Assembly: GCA_016208745.1 (NCBI GenBank) | Contig: JACQXN010000020.1 | Location: 9,062 to 73,061, forward strand | DNA: 64,000 nt | DNA from: Candidatus Portnoybacteria bacterium | GTDB taxonomy: Bacteria; Patescibacteriota; Minisyncoccia; Portnoybacterales; GWB1-42-6 | Direction: 5' to 3' | In this document: positions 5,098 to 57,412 of the stretch, piece by piece | How positions within the stretch are numbered: the first letter of the stretch is position 1 | How the letters are laid out: every line of letters starts with the position of its first letter | Translations under genes and position numbers: made by a program | Notes under the pieces: model-generated | Seen by the model: only the letters and a program-made list of their open reading frames with translations | What the model was told of the DNA's origin: nothing | Databases searched by the model: none

Positions 5098-8275
<3,178 letters not shown>

Positions 8276-9968: not shown

Positions 9969-9978
9969 TTTTCTTTAA

Positions 9979-10168
9979 GCCACTTTTTGTGCCGACAAAA
10001 AGTGGCCAAAAAACTCTCGCCACGCGTAAAAAATAAAGAAAAATCGGGCTCGCTTCGCTAAATTTGCTATGCCCAGCGCTTCGCGCTGACAACCACAACA
10101 CGCAAATTTTTAACGCTCGGCTCGTCTCGATTTTCTAGTTATTTTTTCGCGATGGCGAATAAATTTTA
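9979..10168 (+). repeat. Copy 1 of a ~190-bp structured intergenic repeat, glyQS to M16 peptidase
   Basis: A 5' hairpin CCACTTTTTGTGCCGACAAAAAGTGG, conserved blocks AAAAAACTCTCGCCA, ATCGGGCTCGCTTCGCTAAATTTGCTATGC and ACGCAAATTTTTAACGCTCGGCTCG, and a variable apical hairpin. Confidence 0.65.
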
Positions 10169-14320: not shown

Positions 14321-15775
14321 ATGTCAAAATTTTATATCACCACAACCCTGCCTTATATCAACGCTGACCCGCATATCGGTTTTGCGATGGAAATAATTCA
14401 AGCGGATGTTTTGGCGCGGTTTTATCGAAAACAAGGCGCTGAAGTTTTTTTTAACACTGGCACAGACGAGCACGGTTTAAAAGTTTTTCGCAAAGCGCAG
14501 GAATTGGGCATCGAGCCGCAGGTATATTGTGATCAAAAAGTTGAGGTCTGGAAAAACTTAAAAGAGCTTTTAAATTTAAGCTTTGATAATTTTATTAGGA
14601 CAACCGATAAGCATCATATAGAAGCGGCGCAGGAACTTTGGCGGCGCTGTAAGCAAAACGGTTATCTTGATAAGAAAAAGTACAAAATTAAATATTGCGT
14701 TGGCTGTGAATTGGAAAAAACAGAGTCGGAATTAATTAATGGCTGCTGCCCTTTGCATCCCGACCAAAAACTTGAAATTATTGAAGAGGAAAATTATTTT
14801 TTCGCTTTTTCCAAATTTCAAAAAGAGCTCCTTTCTCTTTATGAGGCAAATCCATCTTTTGTTTATCCGCCTAAAAAATTTAACGAGATAAAAAAATTTG
14901 TCCAAATGGGGCTGGAAGATTTTAGCGTCTCACGTCTTAAAGCTAAGATGCCTTGGGGCATTGACGCGCCAGATGACAAGGAGCACGTAATGTATGTTTG
15001 GTTTGATGCGCTGGTTAATTATATTTCCGCCCTTGGCTGGCCAAAAGATTTGGAAAACTTTAACCAATGGTGGCCGGGAAGCCAAATCGCCGGCAAGGAT
15101 AATTTAAGACAGCAGACAGCTATGTGGCAAGCAATGCTTTTGGCCGCTGGCTTGCCAAATTCAAAGCAGATTTTTATCGGCGGCTTTATCACCGTCGCTG
15201 GCCAGAAAATGAGCAAAAGTCTGGGAAATGTTATCAGCCCCAAAGATATGGTGGATAAATTTGGCGCAGACGGCACGCGTTATTTACTCTTAACTTTGGG
15301 AGCTTTTGGCGAAGATGTGGATGTGACAATGGAAAGATTAACGGAAAAATATAATGCCGATTTGGCGAATGGACTAGGAAACTTAATTTCGCGGGTGATA
15401 AAATTGTCTCAAAATTATTCTTCGACCAAGCTCCGACCGAAGGTCGGAGCGCGTGGAGAAGTTCTCGACTCGTCCCGCTTGGCGGGACTCGCTCGAACAA
15501 TAAATGAAAGAATGCGGGAAATGAAATTTAAAGAAATTTTAGATGAAATCTGGGCGCAAGTGGCTTGGGCGAATAAATATATTGAGGAGAAAAAATTGTG
15601 GGAATTGGTAAAAAATGATCCGGAAGAAGGAGAGAAGGTTTTAGCAGAGTTACTTTCTTTAATTTCTGAAATTTCAGATGCCCTTACTCCTTTTATGCCC
15701 GAAACCGCGGAGAAAATTAAAAATATTTTATCTGGCGGCGAGTCGGGAGAAATATTATTTCCGAGGGTAAAATAA
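14321..15775 (+). CDS. metG: Methionyl-tRNA synthetase (short form) with a GC-rich hairpin insertion in the anticodon-binding region
   Basis: Class I motifs are present (PYINADPHIGFA as HIGH-like, KMSKSLGN). The segment KLRPKVGARGEVLDSSRLAGLARTIN is encoded by three GC-rich hairpins at 15428-15495. Confidence 0.9.
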   Translation: MSKFYITTTLPYINADPHIGFAMEIIQADVLARFYRKQGAEVFFNTGTDEHGLKVFRKAQELGIEPQVYCDQKVEVWKNLKELLNLSFDNFIRTTDKHHIEAAQELWRRCKQNGYLDKKKYKIKYCVGCELEKTESELINGCCPLHPDQKLEIIEEENYFFAFSKFQKELLSLYEANPSFVYPPKKFNEIKKFVQMGLEDFSVSRLKAKMPWGIDAPDDKEHVMYVWFDALVNYISALGWPKDLENFNQWWPGSQIAGKDNLRQQTAMWQAMLLAAGLPNSKQIFIGGFITVAGQKMSKSLGNVISPKDMVDKFGADGTRYLLLTLGAFGEDVDVTMERLTEKYNADLANGLGNLISRVIKLSQNYSSTKLRPKVGARGEVLDSSRLAGLARTINERMREMKFKEILDEIWAQVAWANKYIEEKKLWELVKNDPEEGEKVLAELLSLISEISDALTPFMPETAEKIKNILSGGESGEILFPRVK

Positions 15776-21488: not shown

Positions 21489-21491
21489 ATT

Positions 21492-23987
21492 TTGGATATG
21501 TTTCCATATCCTTCAGGCGATGGTTTGCATACCGGGCATGTTGAAAGCTATACCGCAACAGATATCATTTCCCGTTATTGGCGTATGAAGGGAAAAAATG
21601 TTTTGCATCCGCAGGGCTTTGACGCTTTTGGTTTGCCGGCAGAAAACTTTGCCATTAAAACAAAGATTCATCCTTCGCAAACCACTCAAAAAGCAATTGC
21701 CACTTTCAAGCAGCAAATGAATATGCTCGGATTTTCCTATGATTGGTCGCGGGAAGTTAATTCGTCTGACCCAAAATATTATAAGTGGACACAATGGTTT
21801 TTTCTTTTACTTTACAAAAATGGTCTGGCATATAGGGGTAAAGCAAAAGTTAATTGGTGCAATTCTTGTCAAACGGTTTTGGCCAACGAACAGGCCGAAG
21901 GCGGAGTTTGCGAGCGATGCGGCAGTCCGGTTGTGCAAAAGGATTTGGAGCAGTGGTTTTTTAAAATTACTGATCTTATTGAATCCAAGGGCGCTACTTC
22001 CGGATTGCTACAGGGTCTTGATAAAATTGACTGGCCAGAATCAACCAAAGCCGGCCAGCGCAACTGGATAGGGAAGTCAGAGGGAGCGCAGTTTAAAATG
22101 GAAATTATAACCAGTACCACCCCGGCCTCCGGCCACCCCTCCTCAGCTGAGGAGGGGACGAAAGGGGAGGTGTTGGATTATATTGAAGTTTTTACAACGC
22201 GATTGGACACGGTTTTTGGGATGACTTTTGCCCTTATCGCTCCGGAACATAAGATTATCAACGAGCTTAAATCGCAAATTGAGAATTGGAGTGAGGTTGA
22301 AAAATATATTGAAGAGGCCAGGAAAAAATCAGAGTTGCAAAGAATTTCTGAAACCAAAGAAAAAACAGGAGTGGAAATAAAAGGCGTAAAAGTTATTAAT
22401 CCTTTTACCGAGCAGGAAATTCCGGTTTTTATTTCCGACTTTGTTTTAGCGCATTATGGAACAGGCGCTGTTATGGCCGTTCCCGGACACGACCAGCGCG
22501 ATTACGAATTTGCTAAAAAATTTAACCTGCCGATTATTGAAGTGATAAAAAGCGAGGACAGAAAATCATCAATTGAAAAGGAGGCATTTATAGAAGATGG
22601 GGTATTGGCTAATTCGCGCGAATACGACAATACAACTTCTGCAAAAGCACGCGAAAAATTAATTGAGTGGATCCAGAAAAATAATCTGGGCGAAAAGAAA
22701 ATTAATTACAAAATGCGCGATTGGTTGGTTTCGCGGCAAAGATATTGGGGCGCGCCAATCCCGATAATTTATTGTCCGCAATGTTGTCATTCCCGCCCCG
22801 CATCGCAGTACGGGGCGAATCTAGAAAACGAAAAATCTGGATCCCGGATCAAGTCCGGGATGACAGAATTTGAAATTACAGAGATTGACGGAAAAAAATA
22901 TGCGATGGTCCCCATTCCAGAAAAAGATTTACCAGTGCTTTTGCCTGATGATGTTGATTTTATGCCGCATGGCGAATCCCCTCTTTCAAAATCAAAAAAA
23001 TTTCACGATGTTTCGTGTCCAAAATGCGGAGAGAAGGCGAAAAGGGAGTCAGACACAATGGACACATTTGTCTGTTCCTCCTGGTATCATTTCCGTTATG
23101 CTGATCCGAAAAACGAAAAAGAATTTGCCAGCAAAGAGAAAATAGAGAAATGGTTGCCAGTTGATTTGTATGTTGGGGGCGCGGAGCATACGGTTTTACA
23201 TCTTTTGTATTCCCGTTTTTTTACCAAGGCCTTGCATAATCTCGGCTACATTGATTTTGACGAGCCGTTTTTAAAAATGCGGCATCAAGGAATAATTTTG
23301 GCTGAAGACGGCCAAAAAATGTCAAAGTCGCTCGGCAATGTTATCAATCCTGATTCGGTGGTGGCACAATATGGCGCCGATGCCTTACGGATGTTTGAAA
23401 TGTTTATGGGGCCGCTGGAAGATGCAAAACCTTGGAATACTAAGGGGATCACCGGGATCTATAGGTTTTTGGAGAAAGCATGGAGGATAAGCTTAAAGTT
23501 TAAAGTTAAAAGTGAAAAGTCAGGGCTAGAAGTTAAAAGTTTAATACATAAAACAATTAAGAAAGTTAGTGAAGACATAGAAAAATTAAAATTTAATACA
23601 GCTATCAGCGCATTAATGGTTTTGCTAAATGAGATTGAAAAAAACGAAGAAATGCCCATCGAGGTTTTTGAAAAGTTTTTAATTCTCCTTTCGCCCTTTG
23701 CGCCGCATATCTCAGAGGAGATTTGGTCACAGTTAGGTCATGAAGAAAGTATTTTTAAAGAAAAATGGCCTGAATATAATCCCGAATTAATTAAAGAAGA
23801 GATAATTGAGTTGATCATTCAGATTAACGGCAAGGTGCGCGATACGATTTCTGTGGCGGTTGATATTTCGGAAACTGACGCTAAAAAACTCGCGCTTGAA
23901 AGCGAGAAGATAAAAAAATATCTTTTGGGCAGAGAGCCAAAGAAAATTATTTTTGTTAAAGAGAAACTAATAAATATTGTATTGTGA
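21492..23987 (+). CDS. leuS: Leucyl-tRNA synthetase main ORF (TTG or ATG restart just after the TAG). It carries at least three in-frame repeat insertions.
   Basis: Contains MFPYPSGDGLHTGH (HIGH), KMSKSLGN, the editing domain and a Zn knuckle CPQC...CPKCG. The insertions are at 22118-22175, 22785-22865 and 23492-23547. Confidence 0.9.
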   Translation: MDMFPYPSGDGLHTGHVESYTATDIISRYWRMKGKNVLHPQGFDAFGLPAENFAIKTKIHPSQTTQKAIATFKQQMNMLGFSYDWSREVNSSDPKYYKWTQWFFLLLYKNGLAYRGKAKVNWCNSCQTVLANEQAEGGVCERCGSPVVQKDLEQWFFKITDLIESKGATSGLLQGLDKIDWPESTKAGQRNWIGKSEGAQFKMEIITSTTPASGHPSSAEEGTKGEVLDYIEVFTTRLDTVFGMTFALIAPEHKIINELKSQIENWSEVEKYIEEARKKSELQRISETKEKTGVEIKGVKVINPFTEQEIPVFISDFVLAHYGTGAVMAVPGHDQRDYEFAKKFNLPIIEVIKSEDRKSSIEKEAFIEDGVLANSREYDNTTSAKAREKLIEWIQKNNLGEKKINYKMRDWLVSRQRYWGAPIPIIYCPQCCHSRPASQYGANLENEKSGSRIKSGMTEFEITEIDGKKYAMVPIPEKDLPVLLPDDVDFMPHGESPLSKSKKFHDVSCPKCGEKAKRESDTMDTFVCSSWYHFRYADPKNEKEFASKEKIEKWLPVDLYVGGAEHTVLHLLYSRFFTKALHNLGYIDFDEPFLKMRHQGIILAEDGQKMSKSLGNVINPDSVVAQYGADALRMFEMFMGPLEDAKPWNTKGITGIYRFLEKAWRISLKFKVKSEKSGLEVKSLIHKTIKKVSEDIEKLKFNTAISALMVLLNEIEKNEEMPIEVFEKFLILLSPFAPHISEEIWSQLGHEESIFKEKWPEYNPELIKEEIIELIIQINGKVRDTISVAVDISETDAKKLALESEKIKKYLLGREPKKIIFVKEKLINIVL
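22785..22865. mobile_element. TGTCATTCCCGC-TIR MITE inserted in-frame (81 bp, 27 codons) inside leuS
   Basis: TGTCATTCCCGCCCCGCATCGCAGTACGGGGCGAATCTAG...ATCTGGATCCCGGATCAAGTCCGGGATGACA encodes the extra segment between CPQCC and EFEITEIDGKKY in the LeuS Zn-knuckle region. Confidence 0.65.
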
Positions 23988-24954: not shown

Positions 24955-25150
24955 GCCGCTTTTTTGGCAGCAAAAAAGCGGCGGAAAAAACTGCGCCCAG
25001 AGCGTAAAAATTTAATAAAATCGGATTCGCCTCGCTAAATTTGCTATCCACAACGCCCCAACCTTACGGTCGGGGCCCCACCACAGCACGCAAATTTTAC
25101 GCTTGGCTCATCGCGATTTTATTAATAAATTTTTCGCTATAGGCGGTGAA
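24955..25150 (+). repeat. Copy 2 of the ~190-bp structured intergenic repeat, tsaC to PAP2
   Basis: Same block order. The 5' hairpin is CCGCTTTTTTGGCAGCAAAAAAGCGG, a different sequence with the same fold. Confidence 0.65.
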
Positions 25151-34783: not shown

Positions 34784-34856
34784 TGTCATTCTGGGCCCCT
34801 ACCCGTCCGGCAGACGGGAACCCGCAATCTAGATTCCCGTTTTCACGGGAATGACA
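34784..34856. mobile_element. MITE of the TGTCATTCCCGC-TIR family (REP-like hairpin pair)
   Basis: It starts TGTCATTC and ends GGGAATGACA, with internal hairpins CCCGTCCGGCAGACGGG and TTCCCGTTTTCACGGGAA. Related copies are at 2330-2412, 22785-22865 and 52780-52849. Confidence 0.55.
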
Positions 34857-35577: not shown

Positions 35578-37695
35578 TTATACGTTCTCATAATTTCTAA
35601 CGAGGTCCACCGCTTCATTCAGCATCTGGATATATAGATTAAGCCCCACGGCGTTGATTTGGCCTGATTGTTCGCGGCCCAAGATATTGCCTGCCCCGCG
35701 GATTTCCAAATCGCGCAGAGCGATTTGATAGCCAGAACCAAGCGCTTGCGCTTCTTTTAGCGCGTCTAATCTTTGTTGCGCAATGTCGGTCAGATTTTTT
35801 TCATTATACAAAAAATAGGCATAGGCCTGTTTATCAGAGCGCCCAATTCTGCCTCGCAATTGATAGCTTTGGGCCAGGCCAAGTTTTGTCGCGTTTGCAA
35901 CAATTAGAGTATTAACATTGGGAAAATCCAAGCCGTTTTCAATAATTGTTGTGGCCACTAGAATATCAATCTTTTTTTCGCCAAAATCATCCATCACTTT
36001 TATCAATTGTTTTTCGTTCATGCGGCCGTGAGCAATAGCAATATAAATTTTCCCCCCCTCCTTTTTAAAGCCTGCCTGTCCGGTAGGCAGGGAGGGGTGG
36101 GGTGGATTTTTTGAATTATCTCCATCCGTAGAATAAATCCCTCCCAGCCTCCCTTTAAAAAGGGAGGAGTTTTTTAGTAATTTCTCAATCTGCTTCTTTG
36201 CCAGTTCAATTGTTTCAATCCGATTATGCAGATAATAAATTTGTCCGCCTCGCTTTAATTCAAATTCAATCGCTTTTTTAATTGTTTTTGGTGAATAGGG
36301 TTCAATAAATGTTTTAACTGCCAATCGGCCGGGCGGCGCGGTTTGAATTAAACTGATATCGCGCAAGCCGGTTAAAGATAAATGCATTGTTCTTGGGATA
36401 GGCGTGGCGCTCAAACTTAAAATATCTATGTTGGCGCGCATTTCTTTAAATCGCTCTTTTTGTTTAACGCCAAATCTTTGTTCCTCATCTATTATAACTA
36501 GTCCAAGACTTGGAAACTCTACGTCTTTTTGAATGAGACGATGGGTGCCAATAACAATATCAGTCTGGCTGTCTTTAATTTGTTTTATGGTTTGAGCCTG
36601 ATTCTTTTTTGATTCCAATCTTGAAAGCAGCGCGATATTAATTGGAAATTTTTTAAGCCGGTTTAAAAAATTATGATAATGCTGGTGGGCTAAAATGGTT
36701 GTTGGCGTGATTAAAGCTACCTGTTTGCCAGCAGTTACTGCTTTAAAAGCCGCGCGCAAAGCGATCTCTGTTTTGCCAAAACCAACATCCCCGCAAATTA
36801 ATCTGTCCATTGGTTTTTCCGATTCCATATCTTTTTTAACGTCTCTCATAGCAGACAATTGATCTTCGGTTTCAATATATAAAAAAGAATCTTCCAGCTC
36901 TTTTTGCAAAGCGTCATCTGGCGGAAATTTAAAACCAGAAACTGCTGCGCGCTTGGCATAAATCTCCAATAATTCTTTAGCCAGATTCAAGGCGCTTTCT
37001 TTGATTTTTCTTTTGGTTTTATACCAGAGCGTTCCGCCAAGGCGATGCACAATCGGCGTTTCAAAGCCAATGTATCTGGTTAATTTTTCTTCCAGTTCAA
37101 GCGGCACATAAAGCCGGTCATTTTTGGCGTATTCTAAAACGAAATATTTTTCTTGACTCTCGGGCGTCGGCGAGTTAAAAGAAAGCTCGCCACCTAGTTC
37201 TTTGGCAAAGCCCTTAAAAATGCCAATGCCATGGTCCAGATGAACCAGATATTCATTCGGTTTTAAATTTGCCAGAAGTTGCGAAGGCGCTTGTTTTTTA
37301 AGGGCTTTCTTGATTGTTTCTGGCTTTTCGTCGATTTTAATTTCAAGAGAAAAAATTTCAGCCAGCTCATTGCCGGAAAATTCAAGGCGCAAGGCCGAAT
37401 CCATATTTATCGGAAAAATATCTAAGATCCCGCCGCGTTGGGAGAGCTCGCCGGGTCTAGCCAATGTTTGCACGCGCTCATAACCAAAATTAGTCAGTTT
37501 TCTTAATAGCTCAAATAGATTTATTCTCTGATTTTTTTCTAAAAAGATCGTATTATCCTTCCACCAGATCTGGGTTTTAGCTACTTCTTCTATTTTTTTT
37601 TGGTTTTCGGAGAACCAAAAGATATCCCGATCTAGGAAATACGGCGACAAGCTTGCAATTAGAATTTTAGTTGGATTTTTACTTTCTGATATCAT
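35578..37695 (-). CDS. mfd: Transcription-repair coupling factor Mfd, compact 705-aa form, carrying an in-frame palindromic-repeat insertion
   Basis: UvrB-homology region (ARPGELSQRGGILDIFP), SF2 helicase motifs (GDVGFGKTEIALRA, DEEQRFGV) and the TRG motif. The insertion ...KGRLGGIYSTDGDNSKNPPHPSLPTGQAGFKKEGG... is encoded by a CCTCC-family element at about 36050-36172. Confidence 0.8.
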   Translation of the reverse strand: MISESKNPTKILIASLSPYFLDRDIFWFSENQKKIEEVAKTQIWWKDNTIFLEKNQRINLFELLRKLTNFGYERVQTLARPGELSQRGGILDIFPINMDSALRLEFSGNELAEIFSLEIKIDEKPETIKKALKKQAPSQLLANLKPNEYLVHLDHGIGIFKGFAKELGGELSFNSPTPESQEKYFVLEYAKNDRLYVPLELEEKLTRYIGFETPIVHRLGGTLWYKTKRKIKESALNLAKELLEIYAKRAAVSGFKFPPDDALQKELEDSFLYIETEDQLSAMRDVKKDMESEKPMDRLICGDVGFGKTEIALRAAFKAVTAGKQVALITPTTILAHQHYHNFLNRLKKFPINIALLSRLESKKNQAQTIKQIKDSQTDIVIGTHRLIQKDVEFPSLGLVIIDEEQRFGVKQKERFKEMRANIDILSLSATPIPRTMHLSLTGLRDISLIQTAPPGRLAVKTFIEPYSPKTIKKAIEFELKRGGQIYYLHNRIETIELAKKQIEKLLKNSSLFKGRLGGIYSTDGDNSKNPPHPSLPTGQAGFKKEGGKIYIAIAHGRMNEKQLIKVMDDFGEKKIDILVATTIIENGLDFPNVNTLIVANATKLGLAQSYQLRGRIGRSDKQAYAYFLYNEKNLTDIAQQRLDALKEAQALGSGYQIALRDLEIRGAGNILGREQSGQINAVGLNLYIQMLNEAVDLVRNYENV

Positions 37696-38134
37696 AGCGA
37701 AAGGGATATCTTTTCAGAAGGGGCGACGGGGAAACTGGGTGTTTCCCCGTGGTGGAAATATTAAAACCGCAAGGTTTTAAGGAGTGAGCCTAAAAAGGCG
37801 AACGACAAAATATCCCGCTCTAAAAAATAGGGGGTAAGGCTGGCAATTAAAATTTTTTCTTTTTCACTTGACAAGCCCATTAAACCAGATAATAATAACC
37901 TATTCTGGATAAATGGTCAAAAAGCATCCGAATAGCGCAAAATTCTACACGAATGCGTCCATACGAATAAAAATTCTTTCTACCATCCTATCTGTGAGTG
38001 GCCAAAGCCAAAGTTAACCCTCCTAAACTTTGGTGAGTAACCTCAAGTATCAAGGGCGAATCCTTTTGGAATCTGCTCTTGTCACTCGCAGGTAGGATGG
38101 TGGATGGGATTAAGTTCTTTTAAAAAGGAGAAGT

Positions 38135-46159: not shown

Positions 46160-46200
46160 CACTTTTATTTTTCGGCATATCCCTTAGTGAATTTTTTAAA

Positions 46201-46390
46201 CCTACTTTTTGTACCGACAAAAAGTAGGCAAAAAACTCTCGCCAAGCATAAAATTTTGATAAAATCAGACTCGGCTCGCTAAAATTGCTATGCACCCCGC
46301 ATTCTGCGGGGCCCAAAGGCACAGCACGCAATTTTTTAACGCTCGTCTTGCCTCGATTTTATTGCAAAATTTTTGCTATGGCGAAGAGGG
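46201..46390 (+). repeat. Copy 3 of the ~190-bp structured intergenic repeat, yqeY to ybeY
   Basis: Same block order. Hairpin CCTACTTTTTGTACCGACAAAAAGTAGG. The long-stem pairing AAAATTGC/GCAATTTT differs from AAATTTGC/GCAAATTT in copies 1 and 2 in a compensatory way. Confidence 0.65.
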
Positions 46391-52779: not shown

Positions 52780-52849
52780 TGTCATTCCCGCGAAAGCGGG
52801 AATCCAGGCTCTTTTTTGAATCTAGATTCCCGCTTTCGCGGGAATGACA
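52780..52849. mobile_element. MITE of the TGTCATTCCCGC-TIR family (inverted pair of REP-like hairpins)
   Basis: TGTCATTCCCGCGAAAGCGGGAATCCAG...ATCTAGATTCCCGCTTTCGCGGGAATGACA. The two halves are reverse complements of each other. Confidence 0.6.
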
Positions 52850-56548: not shown

Positions 56549-57412
56549 ATGATACAAAAATCTATGAAAAAAGTTTTCGTTACCTTAACAGTTTTATCGT
56601 TAATGGTATTGACGGCGGCTCCTGCTTTGGCTGGTCATCGTCCTTCAAGACACCAAATGCCAGCTAATGACAGCGATATCACAATTAATATTGATAATGA
56701 GGCGACTGTTACCAACATCGTTTCTGTCGGAGCTTACACCGGCGGCAATACCTCTAAAGGCGATGACGGCGGCGACGGCGGCGACAGCGGCGAAGCAGAA
56801 GTTGAAGGAGCTAAAGGCACTGCCACTTCCGGCGACGGCGGCGACGGCGGCGACGGCGGCAATGGCGGCACAATCACCTCTGGTGATGCAGATGCGAGCG
56901 CCTATATTGCTAACGTAGTTAATACCAATTTGACTTCAGTTGATGCTTGCGGTTGCGAAGAAGGAGAAGAGGAAGATGGCTGTGGATGTGAAGATCCTTG
57001 CGGCTGTCAGTCTCGCTGCGGCGGCTCTCAACAAGGGGATGACTGTGGTTGCATTGATGACATCAAAGTTGACATAGAAAACAAAAAGACTGATGTTAAC
57101 AACAATGCAGGAGTTATGGCCGACACAGGTTTAAATGAATCCAAAGGCGATGACGGCGGCAATGGCGGCGACAGCGGCGAAGCAGAAGTTGAAGACCAAG
57201 ACAAAGACAGAGACAACAGATGGCATCGCGGCGGCTGCAATACTTGCGGCAGTGATTCAGAAGACAGCGAATGCTGCCCTGAAGCCACTTCAGGTGATGC
57301 AGGCGATGGCGGCGACGGCGGCAATGGTGGTGAAATCACCAGCGGCGCAGCTGCGGCTACAGCCAAAGTATTTAATCTGGTTAACACCACTGTTACCAGA
57401 GTTCGCAGATAA
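56549..57412 (+). CDS. Secreted Gly/Asp/Cys-rich repeat protein
   Basis: Signal peptide, two internal repeats (SKGDDGGxGGDSGEAEVE...TSGDAxxxAxxxNxVNTxxT), and a CGC-rich metal-binding-like segment. The antisense ORFs are spurious. Confidence 0.6.
   Translation: MIQKSMKKVFVTLTVLSLMVLTAAPALAGHRPSRHQMPANDSDITINIDNEATVTNIVSVGAYTGGNTSKGDDGGDGGDSGEAEVEGAKGTATSGDGGDGGDGGNGGTITSGDADASAYIANVVNTNLTSVDACGCEEGEEEDGCGCEDPCGCQSRCGGSQQGDDCGCIDDIKVDIENKKTDVNNNAGVMADTGLNESKGDDGGNGGDSGEAEVEDQDKDRDNRWHRGGCNTCGSDSEDSECCPEATSGDAGDGGDGGNGGEITSGAAAATAKVFNLVNTTVTRVRR

Follow-up and report, generated by a model that had tools for sequence, protein, structure and literature searches.

The methionine–tRNA ligase gene (metG) of a Candidatus Portnoybacteria contig (JACQXN010000020.1) was found to carry, in frame, an 89-nt palindromic insert, which is probably a translated copy, lacking an open reading frame (ORF) of its own, of a dispersed palindromic mobile element. 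The stretch of DNA analysed, 64,000 nt in length, is referred to below as the window. Within it, metG corresponds to the ORF at 14321–15775 (+), which encodes 484 aa and, according to the ORF list, is open throughout, the element included; its product, a methionyl-tRNA synthetase (MetRS), has 100% identity to P0001, a Candidatus Portnoybacteria MetRS. An initial annotation of the window had drawn attention to a GC-rich triple hairpin at 15428–15495, encoding the peptide KLRPKVGARGEVLDSSRLAGLARTIN, and had suggested an in-frame palindromic element. Both the stretch and the peptide are present as described, in the frame of the 484-aa ORF, with a GC content of 0.63 at 15440–15499 against 0.41 for metG and for the contig. 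The suggestion itself is supported, as the segment is rare among MetRS homologues and copies of it occur in other genes and in intergenic DNA.

The span first proposed proved to be the core of a larger unit. On folding, the hairpins were seen to be enclosed by an 11-nt inverted repeat, TTATTCTTCGA/TCGAACAATAA, and the element was therefore taken to extend over 89 nt (15415–15503, +) rather than 68 nt, as an ORF-less inverted pair of hairpin units with the in-frame reading (N)YSSTKLRPKVGARGEVLDSSRLAGLARTI(N). The left unit (15415–15462, +) reads TTATT-CTTC-GA-stem-loop-GA-GAAG-T and the right unit (15461–15503, −), on the bottom strand, TTATT-GTTC-GA-stem-loop-GA-GAAC. The left terminal motif, TTATTCTTCGA (15415–15425, +), contains in CTTC-GA the 5′ half of the closing stem of the left unit; the right terminal motif, TCGAACAATAA (15493–15503, +), is its inverted counterpart with one C/C mismatch, 10 of the 11 positions agreeing. 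Between the two termini lie the variable core hairpins of the left and right units, which are the first and third hairpins of the initial annotation. The first is present as CTCCGACC-GAA-GGTCGGAG at 15431–15449, with a stem of 8 bp instead of the 7 bp claimed, or of 9 bp when the closing G-C pair is included (GCTCCGACC-GAA-GGTCGGAGC, 15430–15450, +). The third, GTCCCGC-TTG-GCGGGAC (15472–15488, +), likewise exists; it reads CGTCCCGCTTGGCGGGACT and not AGTCCC..., the preceding base being C rather than A, and its stem has 7 bp, not 8. The palindrome GAGAAGTTCTC between them was also confirmed, at 15456–15466 (+), not as a hairpin of its own but as the junction of the two units (GAGAAG/GTTCTC), where the top strand supplies the 3′ half of the closing stem (GA-GAAG) for the left unit and the bottom strand that for the right unit. 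The right core hairpin is also found in the closest homologue, L081, with AAA as its loop; other metG copies have a mini-hairpin only.

For identification of further copies, metagenome contigs were scanned for the family pattern TTATTCTTCGA-N40-70-TCGAACAATAA, of which 15415–15503 is an exact match. At least 120 stretches were recovered, giving at least 123 distinct copies of 62–92 nt; the family-wide counts reported here (pairing, phase, length modulo 3 and hosts) rest on the copies among the matches listed. When the window was searched by nhmmer with a family profile, 15415–15503 was returned with E = 7e-10. A search of the window with the two GC hairpin cores, allowing up to 3 mismatches, gave no second copy, these cores being the variable part of the element and so a poor probe. 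The additional copies expected by the initial annotation are thus absent from the rest of the 64-kb window but abundant in related genomes. A profile of the ten metG copies described below, run on the homologue loci, detected a copy in a TGT gene (L088, 1239–1318) and three further copies around a 90-aa GIY-YIG gene in L089. No family match (0) was obtained in a scan of viral contigs, and essentially no copy was present in the metG surroundings of 80 other species of the candidate phyla radiation (CPR; 338 kb in total, up to 62% identity). This near-absence indicates that the family is restricted to one lineage, and it is found in Portnoybacteria-like Parcubacteria (CPR). A search of the published literature turned up no account of such an element from CPR.

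Folding of 15415–15503 is beyond chance. As RNA, 15415–15510 folds at −41.9 kcal/mol (z = −4.2 against shuffled sequences), and as single-stranded DNA (ssDNA) the 89-nt element gives z = −4.1 for the top strand and −5.0 for the bottom strand. When the units were folded separately as ssDNA, CTTC/GAAG closed the stem of the left unit (−12.7 kcal/mol, z = −4.1), and the right unit reached −9.8 kcal/mol (z = −3.7). Across the family, the positions directly following CTTCGA and directly preceding GAGAAG form a base pair in 108 of 112 copies (mean for shuffles 58, maximum 70), and those directly following GTTCTC and preceding TCGAAC do so in 110 of 115 (mean for shuffles 74, maximum 83). All four Watson-Crick types occur at the first inner pair of the left unit (G-C 64, C-G 20, A-T 15, T-A 7), and the unit hairpins are maintained by compensatory change. 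Because pairing within the units is so strong, the element can be described as a single hairpin unit, TTATT-CTTC-GA-(variable stem-loop)-GA-GAAG, of roughly 35–45 nt, present twice in inverted orientation; the variable part of the unit ranges from a GCGAAGC-type mini-hairpin up to a 9-bp GC stem. A cloverleaf or four-way junction, as drawn in the minimum free energy (MFE) fold, was rejected, as pairs that would extend the stems between units were found in just 75 of 115 and 74 of 114 cases, near the values for shuffles.

The distribution of the insert was then followed among MetRS homologues. The motif YSST...ARTI occurs in just 11–12 of the 120 closest homologues, and 108 of the 120 are without the segment, so that alignment of orthologues, in line with the initial annotation, shows it not to be conserved MetRS sequence. 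In a MetRS tree built without this region, filled homologues are interspersed with empty relatives at no fewer than five separate positions, and the region after the NGLGNLxSR helix is hypervariable in the alignment of close homologues. An AlphaFold2 model of the window MetRS has a mean pLDDT (the model's per-residue confidence) of 89, the sole segment below 50 being residues 369–384, within the insert. The insert is located between helices 337–366 and 384–399, the first two of the anticodon-binding domain in this model, and is predicted to be a tolerated, disordered surface loop of MetRS. Other lineages were seen to carry other repeat-like peptides in the same loop (NFQFSISNFQSISND, PKAGLSDFLKPGF and GNLGNQGD; alignment columns ~420–470), so that this loop is a hot spot at which inserts of different kinds occur. 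Another MetRS insert of patchy distribution (ASAKASAGKP-like) follows GWP at alignment columns 262–300 in P0011, P0013, P0022, P0040 and P0081.

For comparison at the nucleotide level, the DNA of nine filled homologues was set against the window copy, and the resulting ten metG copies were aligned by hand, a MAFFT alignment having misplaced indels. Across metG genes of just 63–75% amino-acid identity, there is hardly any change in the terminal motifs or in the central GAGAAGTTCTC(GAC); the family-defining TTATTCTTCGA is nearly invariant, synonymous sites included. Stems of the first hairpin differ from copy to copy (CTCCGACC/GGTCGGAG, CCCAGC/GCTGGG, TTCGAC/GTCGAA, TTCGGC/GCCGAA, CCCCGC/GCGGGG), with 72 of 73 stem cells paired and both-side compensatory changes at 4 of 9 positions. 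Synonymous-codon identity is 0.83–0.91 within the element, as against 0.52 gene-wide, at an amino-acid identity there of only ~0.5. High synonymous identity together with stem covariation therefore points to selection, or more recent common ancestry, acting at the level of the nucleic acid rather than the peptide.

Two pairs of filled and empty metG alleles were available for direct comparison. The DNA of L082 (filled) and L210 (empty) is ~85% identical, except at codons ~358–405, where identity falls to 28–50%; the replaced tract comprises the element and 18 downstream codons, which resemble those of other filled alleles. L084 (filled) and L211 (empty) are also ~85% identical gene-wide and drop to 28–50% in a shorter tract, which takes in the element together with 5 upstream and 3 downstream codons. 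The canonical xIEKNFDGxIE loop of the empty allele is absent from its filled counterpart in both pairs. The sharply bounded tract and the lost native loop show that the element was acquired through gene conversion (allelic replacement), the end-points of which vary, rather than by simple insertion. As judged from these sequences, the element moves between alleles by homologous recombination, the flanking codons being co-converted, and two independent pairs thus show the difference seen with homing-type elements, namely the element plus co-converted flanks. In TGT, the element stands in place of a loop of 9–11 aa.

Most of the listed copies are intergenic, and both orientations occur. Those within ORFs of at least 150 aa number 38, of which ~20 are in housekeeping genes identified by Pfam. 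Among the hosts of in-ORF copies are TGT, cysteine desulfurase, FemAB, UvrD/PD-(D/E)XK helicase-nuclease, PriA, TsaD, VanW, amidohydrolase, reverse transcriptase and polyprenyl synthase; those with the element in antisense orientation include TsaD, ThyX, Mur ligase, SecA and amine oxidase. Of 28 sense copies within ORFs, 27 are read in one phase (xYSS[ST]...RTI or ...SNN[KN]); the remaining exit frame is the one in which the terminal TAA would come into frame. Lengths modulo 3 are accordingly distributed 16/12/2 among in-ORF copies, compared with 39/31/28 for the rest, a bias that is predicted by translation and not by excision at the RNA level. A FemAB-like ORF (L109, 3–1949) holds three in-frame copies. 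Two TsaD genes (L127, 3487–3567; L104, 2070–2151) have the element at the identical residue but inverted relative to each other, suggesting either independent hits or an inversion in situ. The L088 TGT gene (166–1533; genome of P0019) was also seen to have, besides its family copy, GC-rich inserts ...NRKIFPGEENFTRQTSSLFAEGETVPARRSERFEESPASLG... and GHPERSEGSKRFFGLRPQND, absent from relatives, which are probably other repeat families in frame.

Longer copies with the same ends, looked at as a possible autonomous relative of the miniature inverted-repeat transposable element (MITE) kind, encode a GIY-YIG nuclease. In L128, L168, L135 and L099, a GIY-YIG ORF of ~90 aa lies exactly between the units, in the order left unit, 3–16 nt, ATG...stop, right unit, and thus at the position of the junction palindrome. 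A variant in L184 also has GIY-YIG between its units, with both motif pairs changed in a compensated manner (TTATTCCCTGAG/CTCAGGCAATAA and GTCGAAGG/CCTTCGAC). The Levybacteria protein P0186 (L212–L218), which had been picked by protein similarity alone, is preceded by TTATTCTTCGAC-hairpin-GGAGAAGT three bases 5′ of its ATG and followed directly 3′ of its stop by a full miniature copy of the element. A single-domain GIY-YIG gene with flanking units, the layout known from Ssn and its SRM repeats, is thus found in L128, L168, L135, L099, L184, L089 and L212–L218. The element-associated proteins are 79–90 aa in length and match PF01541 (GIY-YIG) only in Pfam; no NCBIfam match was obtained for the GIY-YIG protein. 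Among the GIY-YIG homologues P0121–P0206, most of the 86 clusters are on contigs below 3 kb, in keeping with breakage of assemblies at these genes and their repeats; their sources include Levybacteria, Daviesbacteria, Microgenomates, Omnitrophota and an Aenigmarchaeota metagenome-assembled genome.

The nearest precedent for the in-frame copies are the Rickettsia palindromic elements (RPEs), reportedly described by Ogata et al. in 2000. In-frame palindromic repeats of this kind have been known for 25 years and, to our knowledge, have had no enzyme or route of spread assigned to them. Like RPEs, which are also mentioned in PMC10969869, the family consists of strongly folding, short palindromic repeats dispersed in many copies through the reduced genome of a host-dependent bacterium, some of them within ORFs whose frame stays open. 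Further shared features are insertion in frame in housekeeping genes, translation as tolerated surface segments, and orthologous insertions common to species. The CPR family differs in its smaller size (62–92 nt), its associated nuclease gene and the gene conversion shown by filled/empty pairs; the hosts belong to different phyla, and no sequence relationship between the two is known.

For the nuclease-carrying form, the closest counterpart is Ssn, a single-domain GIY-YIG protein of ~94 aa that cuts ssDNA beside oriented hairpin repeats (NTS/SRM), about 2% of NTS being inside genes (Chenal et al., Nat Commun 2025, PMC11893778). Ssn genes are flanked by SRM/NTS repeats in a layout that was termed 'identical to' insertion sequences, mobility not being shown there (PMC11893778). 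Both systems have a single-domain GIY-YIG gene of ~90 aa between oriented hairpin repeats (repeat-gene-repeat), many scattered ORF-less repeat copies in the genome, and a hairpin unit with conserved non-palindromic flanks. The CPR family is distinguished by its unit sequence (TTATT-CTTC-GA-stem-GA-GAAG) and host, by copies that are typically abutted inverted pairs, by their frequent location in frame inside coding regions, as opposed to the low intragenic share of NTS, and by comparative evidence of spread between alleles. By analogy, the family appears to work like the Ssn/SRM pair and like RPEs, while being a proven member of neither.

Other mobile elements were compared in the same manner. 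As with MITEs and with PATE and REP-BIME repeats (palindrome-associated transposable elements; repetitive extragenic palindromes and their mosaic arrays), which are linked to IS200/IS605 or RAYT enzymes, the metG insert resembles a miniature non-coding derivative of a gene-carrying element, with terminal inverted repeats and small non-coding size; the hairpin ends are plausibly recognised as ssDNA, and copies are nested and clustered. The CPR family differs in having no detected target-site duplication and in a gene of the GIY-YIG type instead of a DDE or HUH transposase, and whereas REPs are extragenic, many of its copies are intragenic and in frame. With the homing endonuclease genes of group I introns and inteins it shares a selfish nuclease gene within an element in conserved genes, spread into empty alleles with co-conversion of flanks, and persistence of ORF-less derivatives. 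Unlike those, the CPR element is not spliced, as judged by the frame and stop statistics, and is tolerated as an extra peptide; its nuclease is single-domain and has no DNA-binding module, and the element occupies many different target genes. Integron attC-like sites and IS630-type TA duplication were also considered and set aside, as their motifs do not fit and no simple-insertion empty site was seen.

It was considered how such an element might spread. The GIY-YIG protein would recognise the unit hairpins in ssDNA and nick beside them, in the manner of Ssn at NTS; copying of the element into empty alleles could then be driven by the resulting breaks or by transforming DNA that enters the cell. 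Copying may occasionally reach new surface-loop sites, and in essential genes it would be the frame-preserving insertions that survive. That the nuclease drives the spread of the element we regard as about an even prospect. More tentatively still, the family may represent a new class of homing-type element, in which an Ssn-like GIY-YIG gene, bracketed by its own recognition hairpins in inverted orientation, and its ORF-less derivatives invade surface loops of essential proteins in frame and pass between alleles by nuclease-stimulated gene conversion; on balance we lean somewhat away from the full scheme. Were it correct, it would constitute the first evidence of mobile Ssn-type elements and would provide the RPE-like, 'protein-invading' repeats of reduced genomes with a mechanism. 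The family in any case links RPE-like repeats with Ssn-type systems, bringing together a nuclease-carrying form, abundant miniatures, in-frame copies and filled/empty alleles. Such inserts inflate and diversify CPR proteins, break assemblies, and can mislead annotation and phylogeny.

Several observations weigh against a mobile element of this kind. GIY-YIG enzymes are hydrolytic nucleases, and we know of no transposase family among them; the nearest PDB entries to the CPR GIY-YIG proteins are the UPF0213 proteins 1zg2 and 1ywl, and 0 of 123 listed family copies match the published SRM pattern, HGTCWYN(0-2)YYVSBRHN(0-5)WNVSBRGN(0-2)RNCYNB. By family-profile nhmmer, the metG copy is the single family member in the 64-kb window, and no GIY-YIG gene was found within this window. 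In metG and TGT, 9–17 native loop residues are replaced by the element rather than simply extended. No direct repeat of at least 4 nt beyond chance, as would be left by target-site duplication, was detected at 122 copies, a duplication of 2–3 nt hidden in the TTA/TAA ends being below the reach of this test; longer terminal repeats were likewise looked for and not found. New genes must at some point have been invaded de novo, and allelic replacement is the only form of gain seen. Finally, the conserved motifs in old metG copies could also reflect a function at the level of the host instead of selfish spread.

That last point leads to the alternative to which we give most weight, while still considering it unlikely: the element may be a host-domesticated recognition site which, like NTS in Neisseria, marks DNA for an Ssn-type ssDNA nuclease and modulates recombination or transformation under host-level selection. 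In metG copies with diverged variable hairpins, the terminal and junction motifs are still preserved at synonymous sites, the recombination tracts have their ends at the element, canonical SRM/NTS motifs are present in the same window, and the Ssn/NTS pair modulates transformation in Neisseria (PMC11893778). A site kept by the host fits poorly with a patchy presence among close relatives, most lineages being without the element, with copies in many unrelated genes in both orientations, and with a nuclease ORF between two units that resembles an insertion sequence; domestication would, moreover, be compatible with mobility rather than exclusive of it. The other rival readings place the function in the RNA or the protein. 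A cis-acting RNA element of the metG mRNA, either an autoregulatory tRNA mimic or a stability or translation signal, would account for the cloverleaf-like MFE fold (z = −4.2), the orthologous position in 10 metG genes, and the covariation of the first hairpin. We consider it very improbable, given that copies also occur between genes, within many other genes and in antisense orientation, and that most MetRS genes do without the segment. Moreover, Rfam matches for the window copy and six other loci were only at chance level, ARAGORN found no tRNA here, and pairing within units (108/112 and 110/115) is far above that of the inter-unit stems (75/115 and 74/114).

Removal of the segment from RNA or protein, as a mini-intron or intein-like intervening sequence whose peptide never appears in mature MetRS, is just as hard to credit. 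The GIY-YIG ORF between the units does resemble homing endonuclease genes in intron loops, and the co-conversion tracts recall intron homing. An excised sequence, however, would not need to be stop-free within ORFs, to avoid the length class that brings TAA in frame (16/12/2, against a uniform 39/31/28 for intergenic copies), or to keep a single phase in 27 of 28 listed sense copies; at 62–92 nt, the element is far below the size of any self-splicing intron, it has no Rfam intron match, intein motifs are absent, and an intein would need more than 29 aa. Least probable of all, and to our minds close to dismissible, is a lineage-specific functional MetRS peptide under protein-level selection, with hairpins that are incidental or due to chance. 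YSST...EVLD.ARTI does recur in 11 MetRS homologues, as such a peptide would; codon conservation is nevertheless well above what the amino acids need, the hairpin arms keep their base pairing even as the residues that they encode vary, antisense copies give unrelated peptides in other proteins, and the segment is a disordered loop in the AlphaFold2 model.

Other repeats were noted in the window. Matches to the SRM/NTS pattern number 4, compared with ~0.15 expected by chance, and are located at 52780–52807 (+), 52822–52849 (−), 34829–34856 (−) and 22837–22865 (−); one example, TGTCATTCCCGCGAAAGCGGGAATCCAG, comes very close to the NTS consensus of Neisseria. The two matches near 52.8 kb lie in inverted orientation, separated by 14 nt, a layout like that of the two inverted units in metG. 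In leuS (ORF 21489–23987, +), in-frame palindromic inserts were observed at 22126–22162 and 22784–22865: one is CCTCCGGCCACCCCTCCTCAGCTGAGGAGGGGACGAA, with the peptide PASGHPSSAEEGT, and the other consists of two SRM-like units in inverted orientation beside the CPQC motif, with the peptide CHSRPASQYGANLENEKSGSRIKSGMT. A Mfd/TRCF-like ORF (35581–37713, −) contains two GC-rich coding hairpins, at 36071–36091 and 36148–36167, one of which (CCTCCCTTTAAAAAGGGAGG) is a member of the abundant intergenic repeat family of the window. This family, AAATCC(A/C)CCCC..CCTCCTTTAAAAAGGAGGG, is mostly intergenic, often in inverted pairs, with copies at 7626, 17887, 21294, 27845, 36129, 54207, 55629, 56320, 57521, 58371, 61391, 62709 and nearby, and may consist of terminator-like or REP-like elements. 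A further repeat of ~200 nt is present in three copies (9970–10160, 25006–25134 and 46192–46385; 73–81% identity) and contains the hairpin CCACTTTTTGTGCCGACAAAAAGTGG and conserved CGCTCGGCTCGTCTCGATTTT blocks. At 56740–57340, GC-rich tandem 9-nt repeats (GGCGGCGAC/GGCGGCAAT) probably encode a Gly/Asp-rich, low-complexity protein segment.

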